Shown here piece after piece: positions 29,023 to 33,091 of a stretch of 64,000 bases of DNA. Numbering within the stretch: the first letter of the stretch is position 1; the number at the start of each line of letters is the position of its first letter. Origin of the DNA: Actinomycetes bacterium (GTDB lineage Bacteria > Actinomycetota > Acidimicrobiia > Acidimicrobiales > Bog-793); the NCBI GenBank assembly GCA_021796545.1, contig JAKABX010000001.1:3977-67976 (forward strand), written 5' to 3'. The position numbers were made by a program, and so were the translations under genes. A model generated the notes under the pieces. It saw nothing but the letters and a program-made list of their open reading frames with translations. It searched no databases and was not told the DNA's origin.

Positions 29023-29881
29023 ACGCGTCCCGGTGGCAAAGACCGCCAAGCTCTACATCGCCGGCGCCTTCCCGCGCTCGGAGTCCGGGCGCTCCTACGT
29101 CGTCAACGCTGCGAACGGCCGCCTGCTCGCGAACGTCGCGGCCGCGTCACGAAAGGACGTGCGCGAGGCCGTCGTCGCGGCGCGCGCCGCACAGGCGCGC
29201 TGGGCGGCGGCCACGGCGTACAACCGCGGCCAGGTCCTCTACCGCATCGCCGAGATGCTCGAGGACCGCGCCCCGACCTTTACGGCGGCGGTCGCGGACG
29301 CGGAGGGCTGCGACGACGCCGACGCCCGCGCGCGTGTCGGCGCGACCATCGACCGACTGGTGTGGTACGCGGGGTGGGCGGACAAGATCGCCCAGATCGT
29401 CGGCGGCGCGAACCCGGTGGCCGGCCCCTTCTTCAACTTCTCGCTGCCCGAGCCGACCGGGGTCGTCGGCGTCCTCGCACCCCAGAACTCGTCGCTCCTC
29501 GGCCTCGTCAGCGTCGTCGCCCCCGTGATCACGACGGGCAACGCGGCGGTGGTCGTCGCGAGCGAGGCGCGCCCGCTGCCCGCGGTCGCCTTCGCCGAGG
29601 TGCTCGCGACCGCCGATCTCCCCGGCGGGGTCGTCAACATCCTCACCGGACGCACCGCCGAGCTCGCGCCTGTGCTCGCCGCGCACCGCGACGTCGAGGC
29701 GCTCGACTGTGCGGGGGCCGGGCCCGAGCTCTCTGCCACCCTCGAGGAGGCGGCCGCCGACAACGTGAAGCGGGTGCTCGCGGCCCCCGGCGAGGAGGAG
29801 GAGTGGAGCGCGTCCCCGAGCGTGCAGCGGATGCTCGCCTTCGTCGAGACCAAGACCGTCTGGCACCCGCTCGGGATCTAG
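29012..29881 (+). CDS. truncated aldehyde-dehydrogenase-family paralog lacking the catalytic Glu/Cys region
   Basis: 289 aa. Aligns by eye to the N-terminal ~60% of the upstream ALDH (LPGGVVNILTG vs LPPGVVNIVTG) but ends before any ELGG or catalytic-Cys motif. The start is TTG 29012 (11-nt overlap) or GTG 29033. Confidence 0.75.
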
Positions 29882-29888
29882 TCAGGCC

Positions 29889-30509
29889 ATGGCACTCACC
29901 GTCGTCGATCACCCACTGGCCGGCGCGCTGCTCAGCGCGCTGCGCGACCGTTCGACACCCCCACCGCTGTTCCGCCTCCTCGCCAAGCGGCTCGCGCTCG
30001 TCTGCTGCCTCGAGGCCACGCGCACGCTGCCGACCGCGCCGGTCGCCGTCGAGACCCCGCTCACCACGACGGGCGGGGTCCGCCTCGCGACGCCGGTCGT
30101 CGCGGTGCCGATCCTTCGGGCCGGGCTCGGGATGCTCGAGGCCGTCACCGAGCTGCTGCCCGAGGTCACCGTCGGCTACGTCGGGCTCGAGCGCGACCAC
30201 GCCACCTTCGAGCCGTCCTTCTACTACTCCAAGCTGCCCCCGCTCGCGGGCCGGACCGTGCTGCTGCTCGACCCGATGCTCGCGACCGGCGGCTCCGCCG
30301 CTGCGGCGTGCACCGCGCTCGCCAAGGCCGGTGCAGAGTCGATCACGCTTCTGTCGGTCGTCGCCGCGCCCGAGGGCATCCGCCACCTCGAGGAGACGCA
30401 CCCCGAGCTCAACATCGTCACGGCCGCCGTCGACGAGGGCCTCGACGATCACGCCTACATCGTCCCGGGCCTCGGAGACTTCGGCGACCGGCTCTTCGGG
30501 ACGAGCTAG
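29889..30509 (+). CDS. upp: uracil phosphoribosyltransferase
   Basis: 206 aa. VVAVPILRAGLGM, LLLDPMLATGGSA (PRPP loop) and YIVPGLGDFGDRLFGT. Confidence 0.93.
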   Translation: MALTVVDHPLAGALLSALRDRSTPPPLFRLLAKRLALVCCLEATRTLPTAPVAVETPLTTTGGVRLATPVVAVPILRAGLGMLEAVTELLPEVTVGYVGLERDHATFEPSFYYSKLPPLAGRTVLLLDPMLATGGSAAAACTALAKAGAESITLLSVVAAPEGIRHLEETHPELNIVTAAVDEGLDDHAYIVPGLGDFGDRLFGTS

Positions 30510-30521
30510 TGGCCCCGCGCG

Positions 30522-30872
30522 TTAGTTCGTCGGTGAATCATCGAACCACGCGCTCGGGTCGCTGAGGTAGAGGCCGCACGCGCAGTCGAGGGCCTCCTCG
30601 GGGCTGCCGGCCGTCATCCCGCTCGGGAGGAACGAGTCCTCGTAGTCGTCGTGGCTCGCCCGGTAGATCGCAAAGCCCCAGGTGTGGAGCACTCCGCCGT
30701 AGCGGAGGCGGCAGAGCTTCTGGACGGTGCCGTCGCCAAGGCGTCCATCGACGTAGGCGAAGTTCGCGCGGAAACGCACGTCGACGCCGACAAGCTCGGG
30801 CCAGCGCTCTTTGGCACGCTCGTTGAGGCGGGCGCTCAGGCTGTGCTTGGTCGATTCCGGTGGCGCCTTCAC
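30522..30872 (-). CDS. hypothetical protein encoded inside the IS, downstream of the transposase
   Basis: GTG 30872 gives VKAPPESTKHSLSARLNERAKERWPELVGVDVRFRANFAYVDGRLGDGTVQKLCRLRYGGVLHTWGFAIYRASHDDYEDSFLPSGMTAGSPEEALDCACGLYL.... Clearly protein-like. The TAA stop lies inside the left IR. The track start 30971 would overlap the transposase 3' end. Confidence 0.65.
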   Translation of the reverse strand: MKAPPESTKHSLSARLNERAKERWPELVGVDVRFRANFAYVDGRLGDGTVQKLCRLRYGGVLHTWGFAIYRASHDDYEDSFLPSGMTAGSPEEALDCACGLYLSDPSAWFDDSPTN

Positions 30873-30894
30873 CGGCCCATTGTTGCCGCCCGGG

Positions 30895-32040
30895 TCAGGC
30901 AGCGAGCGGGACGTGCGACTCGAGGCGCTCGAGCAGGGCGGTGAGATCCTTGGTCGAGAAGCGCCAGTCAAAGGGCGTGGCGGTCGCGTTGTCGTGCTTC
31001 TCGAAGGCCTCGAGGCGCTCAGCGAGGGCCACCAGGTCCGAGAAGTCGCCCAAGCGGACGACCTTGCGCTGGATGATCGAGAAGACGACCTCGATCTGGT
31101 TCAGCCACGAGGCGTGGATCGGAAGGTGGATCAAGCGCGCGTTCGGCAAGGCCGCCTCCATGCGATCGATCGAGCGCTGCCCGTTGTGCGAGGAGCCGTT
31201 GTCGACGACGAAGAAGACGCGCCGGGCGCTCTTGTAGGGCTCTTGCGACATCACCTTGTGCACGAGGGCCATGAACGGTGCGATGCCGGTCTTGTCGGCC
31301 ACCTCGCCAAAGAGCATGGCGCGATGCACGTCGTAGGCGCCGAGGTAGCAGAGCGTGCCGCCCCGGCGATACTCGAACTCGACGCGGCGCAGGCGTCCCG
31401 GGGCGGTCTCGAGATCGCGGTGGCGGCGCGAGAGCGCCTGCAGCTGGGACTTCTCATCGGCGGAGATGACGTACTCGTCCTCCTCGAGCGGGCGCCCGTC
31501 GAAGAGGCGCTCGTAGAGGTCGAGAACCTGAGCGGCCTTCTCGGAGAAGAGCGGATCGCGGGGGAAGATCCAAGAGCGGTAGCGCCAGGGTTTGATCGCC
31601 GCCGCGTGCAGCCAGCGGCGAATGGTCGAAGAGGAGATCGCCTCGACCAGTCCCTCGGTGACCACCTGAGCGGCGAGCTCGTGGGAGCTCCAGCGCACAA
31701 GGGGCACCTCGCGTCGCTCGGGCGGCTCGCAGGCCATTGCCTTCACGTGGGCGACGATCTCACCGGAGAAGCGCCGCAGGCGGCCCGAACGCTTGCGATC
31801 GCTGAGACCGGCACGTCCCTCCTCAAAGAAGCGCTTGCGCCACTTGGAGACGACGTCGACGCAGACTCTCACTCGCCGGGCGATCTCCACATTGGCAAGG
31901 CCGTCAGCGGCGAGCAGCACGATGCGCGCCCGCACGACGTCACGATGAGCGGCGACACCAGAGGAGGCTCGCTGTTCGAGAACTGCCCGATCACCGTCGG
32001 ACAGCACCACGATGAACGGCGACGAGCGAGGCACCGGCAC
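30895..32040 (-). CDS. IS630-family DDE transposase
   Basis: 381 aa. N-terminal HTH (LANVEIARRVRVCVDVVSKWRKRF), then DEKSQLQAL...FFVVDNGSSH...LPIHASWLNQIEVVFSIIQRK, typical of IS630/Tc1-mariner-like DDE enzymes. Confidence 0.9.
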   Translation of the reverse strand: MPVPRSSPFIVVLSDGDRAVLEQRASSGVAAHRDVVRARIVLLAADGLANVEIARRVRVCVDVVSKWRKRFFEEGRAGLSDRKRSGRLRRFSGEIVAHVKAMACEPPERREVPLVRWSSHELAAQVVTEGLVEAISSSTIRRWLHAAAIKPWRYRSWIFPRDPLFSEKAAQVLDLYERLFDGRPLEEDEYVISADEKSQLQALSRRHRDLETAPGRLRRVEFEYRRGGTLCYLGAYDVHRAMLFGEVADKTGIAPFMALVHKVMSQEPYKSARRVFFVVDNGSSHNGQRSIDRMEAALPNARLIHLPIHASWLNQIEVVFSIIQRKVVRLGDFSDLVALAERLEAFEKHDNATATPFDWRFSTKDLTALLERLESHVPLAA

Positions 32041-32302
32041 ACCTCCTGGCTCTCTACGATCGCTGCCAGAAAGTTACACCGATGTATTTATCGGCAGGGC
32101 CACTAGCGCCCCCGTCACGCGCCACTGGGGGAGATCCGAGCCGGGCACCGGTTCCCGGCGCCCGGCTGACACTCGGAGCCGTGCACAGTCTCCGGTCGCA
32201 GCGCCAAGAGCGCGCCCGCAGCCCATCGCCGGCGCCGAGGCGGGCGGCGCCAACCTCCCGGCCTCGCCTGCGCCCGGGCCGCCGAGCAAGCGCCGGAGCC
32301 TA

Positions 32303-32318
32303 AGTGGTCTAGACCGTT
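32303..32318. promoter_or_regulatory. dre-like (DasR/NagR-type) palindromic operator 1
   Basis: AGTGGTCTAGACCGTT matches the Streptomyces dre consensus A(G/C)TGGTCTAGACCA(G/C)T at 14 of 16 positions. It abuts a TTGACG hexamer. Confidence 0.55.
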
Positions 32319-32346
32319 GACGCGTCAAGATCGGCGGGACTACTGT
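32317..32346 (+). promoter_or_regulatory. candidate sigma70-type promoter
   Basis: TTGACG-N18-TACTGT sits between the two dre-like sites. ATG at 32351 is 5 nt after the -10 element. Purely sequence-based. Confidence 0.3.
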
Positions 32347-32351
32347 GCCCA

Positions 32352-32367
32352 TGTGGTCCATACCACT
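32352..32367. promoter_or_regulatory. dre-like operator 2
   Basis: TGTGGTCCATACCACT, 13 of 16 to the dre consensus. The same GTGGTCCATACCAC core recurs as its reverse complement at 37461-37474. Confidence 0.5.
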
Positions 32368-32707
32368 TGGGCGACCACAGCGGCGCCAGCTCGGATCGCG
32401 TCCTTGCCGGTCTCCGACGTCAGGTGCCCGCCGGCGTCCAACCCGTCGTCGTGAACGGGCCGCTGGCACGGCGCGATGTGCGCGCGGCCGACGCCGGTCG
32501 CGTGGGCGCCCGTTGGAGGAGAGGGCGGTCGGAGCCGTGCCGCGGCCCGCTGACGCCGGATCGCCCCGCCTCCCGGGCCGGCGCGGACCGCAAGCATCGC
32601 GACGCCCGGGGAACGGGGCGCGCGGTGACGCAAAGGGCGGCGCGCCTTTGCGCCCGACGGCCGGCGTGCACCGTCGCGCCCCGGACGGCGCCGTCGCGTT
32701 GCCGGGC

Positions 32708-33091
32708 GTGCCGGCGATGATCTCGACGCACTCCGGCCTCGTCGGAGATGGCCCGGCCGAGGGCACGCGCGGCGCGGTCGCGCCGCGCTTCGCCATCCTC
32801 GGCACGAACGAGCCGGGAGTGCCGCCGGACGCCGAGCGCGGGACCGGCGCCCGGACGGGGCTCTCGTTCCCCCGGGCCGGGAACCGGTACCTTTGCGCCC
32901 ACGTGTTCACCGCGCAGCACAGCCACCGCACCCGCGACGTCGGACGCCGAGCCGTCTCGCCCGGTCGCGGCGCAGCCACCGCTCGCCCGGTCGCGGACTG
33001 GGCCGCCTCTCCGGCGCGCGCCCTCCCCTTGCCCGTGAGCGTTCCCCGCCCCTGCGGCGGCGCGCCCGCCGCAGGGGCGGGAAGGCGATGA
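32708..33091 (+). CDS. possible upstream ORF translationally coupled to the GntR regulator (very uncertain)
   Basis: The stop TGA overlaps the regulator ATG (ATGA at 33088-33091). Plus-frame GC1/GC2/GC3 are roughly 76/66/90% from ~32700 onward. The product is Arg/Pro/Gly/Ala-rich and unlike known families. Candidate starts are GTG 32708 or ATG 32717. Confidence 0.25.

Follow-up and report, generated by a model that had tools for sequence, protein, structure and literature searches.

The IS630/Tc1-mariner group is the textbook case of a transposon that requires its transposase alone, and a lineage that keeps a second gene would be a useful exception to it. The closest described insertion sequences (ISs), IS630 from Shigella sonnei and ISY100 from Synechocystis, are about 0.95–1.15 kb long. 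Members of the IS630 family are described as single-gene elements, and the transposase of ISY100 is the sole protein needed for transposition in vitro (PMC2170065). Preferred insertion at the TA within CTAG (Tenzen and Ohtsubo 1991, as cited in PMC2170065) characterises IS630 itself but not all members of the family. Here we analyse a stretch of 64,000 nucleotides from an actinobacterium of the lineage Acidimicrobiia, Bog-793 (assembly GCA_021796545.1, contig JAKABX010000001.1, positions 3,977 to 67,976), referred to as the window, in which positions 30509–32103 are an intact IS630-family IS of 1,595 bp with both of its genes on the minus strand. It shares with IS630 and ISY100 a helix-turn-helix (HTH) plus DDE transposase, imperfect terminal repeats and a TA duplication, and with IS630 itself the preference for CTAG. 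Unlike them, the members of its lineage span 1.5–1.66 kb and have, in tandem with the transposase gene or divergent from it, another conserved gene whose end falls within the terminal repeat. The element as such is ordinary; the conserved accessory family, unannotated as it is, is the interesting part. The features of the locus, in window coordinates, are these (ORF, open reading frame; L166, a related locus considered below).

29889–30509, plus strand: upp, full-length gene of uracil phosphoribosyltransferase (UPRTase; Pfam PF14681, E 1.3e-68)
30507–30508, no strand: left TA of the target duplication, which together with C30506 and G30509 makes up CTAG and the upp TAG stop
30509–32103, minus strand: complete IS630-family IS, with GTGG...CCAC ends, TA flanks, boundaries as in 19/19 related elements and the homology break of L166
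30509–30541, no strand: terminal inverted repeat on the side of the small ORF, coding for the last small-ORF codons (PTN) and the TAA stop
30522–30872, minus strand: conserved accessory gene for a protein of 116 aa, 12.9 kDa and isoelectric point 5.3, from homologs, the ratio of nonsynonymous to synonymous substitution (dN/dS), GC content at third codon positions (GC3) and AlphaFold
30876–30887, minus strand: conserved motif GGCAACAATGGG immediately ahead of the small ORF, in the 22 nt that separate its start from the transposase stop, from alignments
30895–32040, minus strand: IS630-family DDE transposase of 381 aa (NF033545, 170.6 bits; Pfam HTH_23/28/29/32 and DDE_3)
32071–32103, no strand: terminal inverted repeat on the side of the transposase, GTGGCCCTGCCGATAAATACATCGGTG..., identical at 22/33 positions to the other end and identical in L166
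32104–32105, no strand: right TA of the target duplication, forming CTAG as C32103-TA-G32106

The element begins with GTGGCCC at G30509, ends with GGGCCAC at C32103 and has a GC content of 67% vs 73% for the whole window. Its terminal repeats are imperfect (22/33 identical positions on recount; a 31-nt pair at 74% in the repeat search), and judged within the window only, the inverted repeat is no better than the chance pairs of 70–83% encountered in GC-rich DNA. The boundaries therefore had to rest on comparison with relatives. Relatives of the small ORF were encoded at 43 loci when one genome was scanned for each species. An IS630 transposase directly adjoins the small ORF in 34 of them, and the element terminus is kept in seven of the nine that have no adjacent transposase; in the Actinomycetota, 41/43 homolog loci represent an IS630 element or a remnant with an IS terminus. 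At almost every locus the end of the small ORF reads ...ACGAAC-TAA-CGCG....CAC, with TAG next, and beyond this point similarity is lost. The related elements with both ends available are, without exception (19/19), bounded as cTA|GTG...CAC|TAg and have lengths of 1,477–1,658 bp. Six whole contigs of 1,358–1,562 bp, taken from isolates of Dactylosporangium, Actinoplanes and Streptomyces, have ...CACTAG as their exact end, the pattern typical of a multi-copy repeat that has been collapsed. A copy 82% identical to the window element occupies another site (L166), with a binding-protein gene on one side and the gene of a P-type ATPase on the other, and its alignment to the window spans the element plus about 5 nt and goes no further. 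From the shared bounds, the collapsed contigs and the break in L166 together, it follows that the small ORF lies inside the mobile unit. The close tandem relatives, whose transposases are 70–85% identical (L001–L004, L006, L016, L165, L166), all have the small ORF inside the same ends; copies ending near 30890 without it, which the original prediction had named as the finding that would speak against an accessory gene, were not among them. The anatomy given in that prediction was likewise borne out by the sequence, as regards the ends starting GTGGCCC, the 22/33 repeat, the TA on each side, the length of 1,595 bp and the ORF of 116–149 aa downstream of the 381-aa transposase with its TAA inside the left repeat, for which the homologs fix the length at 116 aa. 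Two loci (L008:3968-4370 and L019:3908-4370) are solo remnants, in which the small ORF and the terminus are intact and unrelated genes stand in place of the transposase.

The IS is inserted at 5'-CTAG-3', with duplication of the TA. As the first base of the element is G and the last is C, CTAG is re-formed at both junctions, with the effect that the TAG stop of upp is kept and the gene is unaltered. The upp gene, convergent with the IS genes and intact in its coding sequence despite the insertion, ends as ...LFGTS-TAG, the TAG being the duplicated TA plus the G with which the IS opens; a TAG stop is likewise read in the empty site as reconstructed, gagCTAGcgcc. Both points had been predicted correctly from the window. 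The empty site, which the same prediction had proposed to look for in relatives, was not found: an exact scan of metagenome contigs for the junction pattern gave 0 matches, and no orthologous empty site was recovered among 80 upp relatives, all of them too distant (≤83% aa identity for the nearest) to show one. In every one of these relatives the protein stops at the same position, ...FGT(x), and the IS is missing. The same insertion is present on 7/7 public contigs that encode the exact small protein (three from metagenome-assembled genomes (MAGs) at NCBI and four from ENA assemblies), a fourth NCBI MAG was located via upp, and the exact small protein was found on public contigs solely at the upp site. 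The window copy of the IS looks fixed. Further copies of the element are absent from elsewhere in the window.

The striking location on a stop codon is explained by CTAG targeting in combination with ends that rebuild CTAG. The window is CTAG-poor, with 12 sites observed (3297, 3999, 4348, 11373, 15198, 16202, 20713, 21972, 29878, 30506, 32103 and 32309) vs about 153 expected from base composition, and about 5/12 of these are ends of long ORFs of high GC3. Insertion on a stop codon is understood to result from the targeting of CTAG in a genome that is poor in CTAG and high in GC. About 6/15 related insertions also adjoin probable gene ends, and in L166 the convergent ATPase gene likewise keeps a TAG stop beside the IS. 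Placement on the stop codon is therefore the expected by-product of target choice and not special to upp; selection against disruptive insertions probably helped. One of the CTAG sites (29878–29881) is the stop of an aldehyde-dehydrogenase-like gene, 8 nt upstream of upp. Each insertion, by re-forming CTAG at both junctions, creates new targets. At L005:4330-4390, two copies abut with one TA in common (..GACCAC TA GTGGTC..), and at L042:4160-4200 (cacTAGCTAGtggtcc) a second element is one CTAG away. On the far side of the IS, the ~1 kb up to a GntR/UTRA regulator gene (32106–33090) contains only a doubtful ORF of 246–248 aa (32345–33091) whose Arg/Pro/Ala-rich product has no Pfam match; the region, for which Rfam gives no match, may be non-coding.

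The two genes occur in two architectures. In the tandem order, found in the window and in Acidimicrobiia MAGs, the transposase gene is followed by the small ORF after a gap of 22–50 nt (22 nt in the window). In the divergent order, found in Streptomyces, Actinoplanes, Dactylosporangium, Rhodococcus and Mycobacterium, the genes point away from a central region of ~100 nt, and each of them ends in one of two nearly perfect repeats of ~30 bp. Tandem pairing is seen in haloarchaea too, where plasmids of Halococcus and Halobellus encode an IS630 transposase followed by a 121-aa homolog of the small protein; in the Halococcus element, for which alone the ends were inspected, the gene pair lies inside perfect repeats starting GTGG. 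Common to tandem and divergent elements are the inner part of the repeat on the small-ORF side, CGCGTTAGTTCGTCGG, and the motif GGCA(A/C)G..ATGGG that precedes the small-ORF start, and the latter (30876–30887 in the window) is a probable translation-initiation region as read from the alignments. The lineage is widespread, and its mobile unit has two genes, one for the DDE transposase and one within a module of conserved initiation region, ~116-aa ORF and the terminal repeat where this ORF ends; across the sequences compared, the module appears either downstream of the transposase or divergent from it. The transposases fall into three clades (A, B and archaeal) that are mutually ~40% (36–43%) identical. 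The small proteins of the actinobacterial clades A and B are 53–70% identical to each other, the archaeal one 37–44%. The two genes diverge in a correlated way (Spearman 0.76), with the small protein better conserved than its transposase in 92% of the pairs.

Two elements deserve description in their own right. That of the Halococcus dombrowskii plasmid NZ_CP095006.1 (L045:1757-3420) carries perfect terminal repeats, no shorter than 24 bp, that start GTGGACC, and is apparently flanked on both sides by TGA, not TA, which could be a 3-bp duplication or a coincidence. In the Dietzia kunjamensis plasmid pDK313-58 (L158:793-7146), an element of the divergent type is split by ~4.8 kb between small ORF and transposase; the intervening DNA, with tyrosine-recombinase genes and a DUF6262 gene, resembles a recombinase-trio element inserted in the central region.

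The transposase fits the IS630 family in the score of its model (the curated cutoff of NF033545 is 100 bits), the HTH, the DDE triad, the TA-flanked repeats and the CTAG preference. Its GTG start is preceded at 7 nt by AGGAGG. Matches to HTH_23, HTH_28, HTH_29 and HTH_32 at residues 32–144 delineate the N-terminal bipartite HTH region, and the Pfam DDE_3 match (E 4e-14) includes the candidate catalytic triad of D195 (ADEKS, 31456–31458), D280 (VVDNG, 31201–31203) and E317 (NQIE, 31090–31092), assigned from motif position, not from structure, with 36 residues separating D280 and E317. From the family norm of a single gene in ~1.0–1.4 kb the element departs, having two separate genes in 1,595 bp; since that norm is descriptive and not mechanistic, the element is filed as a variant within the IS630 family. 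A programmed frameshift fusing transposase and small ORF was considered and dismissed, for among tandem relatives the junction differs in length by numbers not divisible by three, and in the divergent class no fusion is possible.

The small ORF can be read as 149 aa from TTG at 30971 or as 116 aa from GTG at 30872, with its TAA at 30522–30524; the GTG start and the 116-aa product were adopted because the homologs mostly have 116 aa. The TAA occupies bases 14–16 of the IS end, 13 nt inside the element. At a threshold of E ≤ 1e-3, the small protein has 3,908 homologs, mostly of exactly 116 aa and all annotated as hypothetical, and the exhaustive search resolved the homologs into 1,439 clusters at 50% identity. 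The dN/dS of 0.08–0.55 is transposase-like, and GC3 is 0.88. Judged by these comparisons, the small ORF is a real gene under purifying selection and an integral part of the mobile unit; the original prediction had noted its protein-like sequence and surmised a passenger or accessory gene travelling with the IS. The AlphaFold model of the short form comprises a helix (6–23), a five-strand meander and a second helix (91–102), with a predicted local distance difference test score (pLDDT) of 78.8. Conserved residues are W24, R33, R35, F38, Y40, R55, L56, R57, G60, F67, Y70, Y77 and D96; their alternation in the predicted strands would bring R33/R35/F38/Y40 and R55/R57 to the same face of the sheet. 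In one subclade of homologs (P0140–P0175 in alignment A1; 55–58% identical), TTA replaces TAA inside the terminal repeat (..PTN-L-RAR..), so that the ORF runs into flanking DNA to give products of 160–246 aa with unrelated tails. Domain fusions were rejected as a functional clue, the longer homologs being read-throughs, deletion derivatives or IS110 insertions.

Homologs of the small protein in other phyla, down to 29% identity, align over the entire domain. A long-form branch of 1,469 proteins of 138–141 aa, all annotated as hypothetical, extends through Cyanobacteria, Gammaproteobacteria, Desulfobacterales and SAR324. Homology of long and short forms is supported by hhalign (99.5% probability, E 1e-22) and by common motifs, which are (I/V)DVRFR..F.Y(I/V)D, LCRLRY.G, W..AFY..S..YE.S and G(T/S)PEEA; extra to the long form are an N-terminal WV.DPHSGG extension and a helical insertion of ~25 residues. 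Its AlphaFold model has a pLDDT of 90.6 and despite this found no match by Foldseek against the PDB. At the long-form loci, no transposase, flanking inverted repeats, conserved flanks or constant neighbour were found, and the neighbours vary from locus to locus (HigBA, an Eco57I-like restriction enzyme, Uma2, a PRiA4_ORF3-family gene, mutY). These stand-alone homologs are 63–87% identical across phyla. To regard them as miniature non-autonomous elements was rejected on the lack of flanking inverted repeats and of conserved flanks. The idea that the accessory gene travels with the IS accordingly holds for the Actinomycetota and does not hold for the longer branch, which stands alone in other phyla; similarly, a distribution of homologs mostly away from transposases, which would have argued for a fortuitous left repeat, is not that of the Actinomycetota (34/43 adjacent) and is that of the long form. 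In Methylomicrobium lacus (AZUN01000001.1; L133:1785-5206), a stand-alone long-form homolog follows a HigB/HTH_3 pair, and on either side of this trio lies a gene of a 283-aa Y1 transposase (REP-associated type), both in the same orientation; the trio is also present on a 1,794-bp metagenome contig (L134).

The locus is a two-gene element of the IS630 lineage, inserted at CTAG, and on the collective evidence we consider probable the overall explanation, in which the small protein would serve as an auxiliary factor. By analogy with ISY100, the transposase would carry out cut-and-paste alone, and the small protein would act outside the transposition chemistry. The gene appears to be accessory, not needed for that chemistry, given that the long-form homologs stand alone and that transposase relatives without the gene exist at 50–56% identity; those at 52–56%, on Streptomyces plasmids and in a ~1.29-kb element of Polaromonas, show no small ORF over a distance of 1.5 kb. 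For the tandem form, a conserved initiation motif and a spacing of only 22 nt from the transposase stop suggest that the two genes would be co-transcribed, and transcription of both would exit the element towards upp, in antisense. A role in the service of the element is favoured because a streamlined IS should soon shed cargo that does not help it; a contact specific to the transposase is not, as one and the same protein is found both beside widely differing transposases and by itself. We tentatively suggest that the small protein may bind nucleic acid or a conserved host component through the exposed face of its β-sheet, where strand alternation would place four conserved arginines together with aromatics (R33, R35, F38, Y40, R55, R57), and might thus tune the activity of the element or its cost to the host. 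A bolder proposal, to our judgement an unlikely one, would have the 116-aa protein, its fold lacking a recognisable solved counterpart, found a novel class of factors encoded by transposons, one that IS630 lineages of Actinomycetota and haloarchaea have long kept for controlling the outcome of cut-and-paste. Its possible roles would include binding the element ends or the transcript and engaging, where excision has broken the DNA, a conserved component of host repair or replication, and the stand-alone relatives would then be ancestors or domesticated copies.

Several observations weigh against the auxiliary-factor explanation. Curated profiles of Pfam, NCBIfam, PHROGs and PADLOC give no match to the short, long or archaeal forms, sequence profiles of the PDB give none to the small protein (best E 0.17), and Foldseek of its model against PDB and BFVD yields nothing significant; that the family would not be recognised agrees with what the original prediction had said of it. 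No promoter or terminator was detected around the element, nor was any structured RNA. Nucleic-acid binding is suggested solely by conserved arginines and aromatics that alternate along the predicted strands. Neither an empty site nor a second copy turned up in this species, which weakens the case for recent mobility. Finally, the stand-alone homologs, and small proteins that are 55–70% identical beside transposases that are 36–43% identical, would suit a host-directed passenger equally. Such a passenger, directed at the host or at other mobile genetic elements (anti-defence, stress or addiction-type) and kept via the fitness of the carrier cell or plasmid, would have no part in transposition; it is the main rival and a real possibility, one we hold to be on the doubtful side and about as likely as the binding role suggested above. 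It would account for homologs so similar across phyla in changing neighbourhoods, for the patchy occurrence of the gene among transposase relatives and for a conservation independent of the accompanying transposase clade. It sits less well with the missing PADLOC and PHROG matches, the absence of any family member from phage and viral collections, and stand-alone neighbours that are not consistently defence genes. Moreover, IS passengers are usually heterogeneous, whereas here thousands of copies have a single family at an unchanging place, its stop lying within the repeat, and the arrangement spans two architectures and two domains of life.

A different question is whether the small ORF and the adjacent terminal repeat constitute an exchangeable module recombined between IS630 lineages, such that the window element would be a hybrid with transposase and left end from one lineage and the small-ORF end from another. 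The small-ORF-side repeat (CGCGTTAGTTCGTCGG) is closer to the repeats of the divergent class than to its own partner end, both orientations occur within one transposase clade, and the clades, ~40% identical in transposase, differ in how far their small proteins have diverged (53–70% for A/B, 37–44% for the archaeal one). Module exchange between lineages thus appears plausible from sequence comparison. The divergence of the two genes is correlated overall, however, halophilic adaptation could have sped up the archaeal small protein, and no recombination breakpoint was mapped; the hybrid origin is in our view a serious candidate, which we lean slightly against. Two further readings would leave the element without a second gene. 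That the left repeat is fortuitous, and the small ORF a resident chromosomal gene beside a shorter IS ending near 30890, would be in keeping with a 31-nt match of 74% that is no better than chance within the window, but we regard it as highly improbable and in effect refuted, since 19/19 relatives end 13–16 nt past the small-ORF stop with CAC|TAg, the repeat-collapsed contigs and the homology of L166 stop at the same end, and the upp relatives have no such gene downstream. Likewise refuted, and still harder to sustain, is that the ORF is no gene and that its frame is kept open by high GC or by a DNA-level constraint of the IS end. Spurious ORFs are common in high-GC DNA, as exemplified by a 431-aa ORF on the opposite strand, but a dN/dS well under 1, the in-frame GC3, a length constant at 116 aa in thousands of homologs, alignment over the whole domain at identities as low as those noted above and the pLDDT of the long form all argue for a protein.

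Lastly, the study has importance in that a family of ~3,900 short-form and ~1,500 long-form homologs is without annotation in the databases searched, and a full-text search of the literature, with ISfinder outside its scope, found no description of a two-gene IS630 lineage. Either a dedicated helper or regulator can be of advantage to a cut-and-paste IS, or the IS has proved a highly efficient carrier for a small gene. Accessory genes of ISs have been overlooked previously, TnpB being the best-known case. Conserved accessory proteins are found in several multi-gene ISs, among them TnpA/TnpB of IS66, TnpB of IS200/IS605, IstB of IS21 and orf121 of IS91. The lineage described here resembles these in that a conserved non-transposase gene is a long-term part of the IS and has stand-alone relatives too; it differs in the transposase family and in the accessory protein, which shows no similarity in sequence to theirs (no Pfam match) and no recognised one in fold, and as judged from sequence the second gene is without a counterpart among known IS accessory proteins. 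Transporter ISs (tIS, a concept of ISfinder) carry passengers that are diverse (regulators, resistance genes, methyltransferases) and element-specific. With them the window element has in common extra coding capacity within the inverted repeats of an otherwise ordinary IS; unlike in them, one and the same family recurs over transposase clades that are 36–43% identical and over both Bacteria and Archaea.

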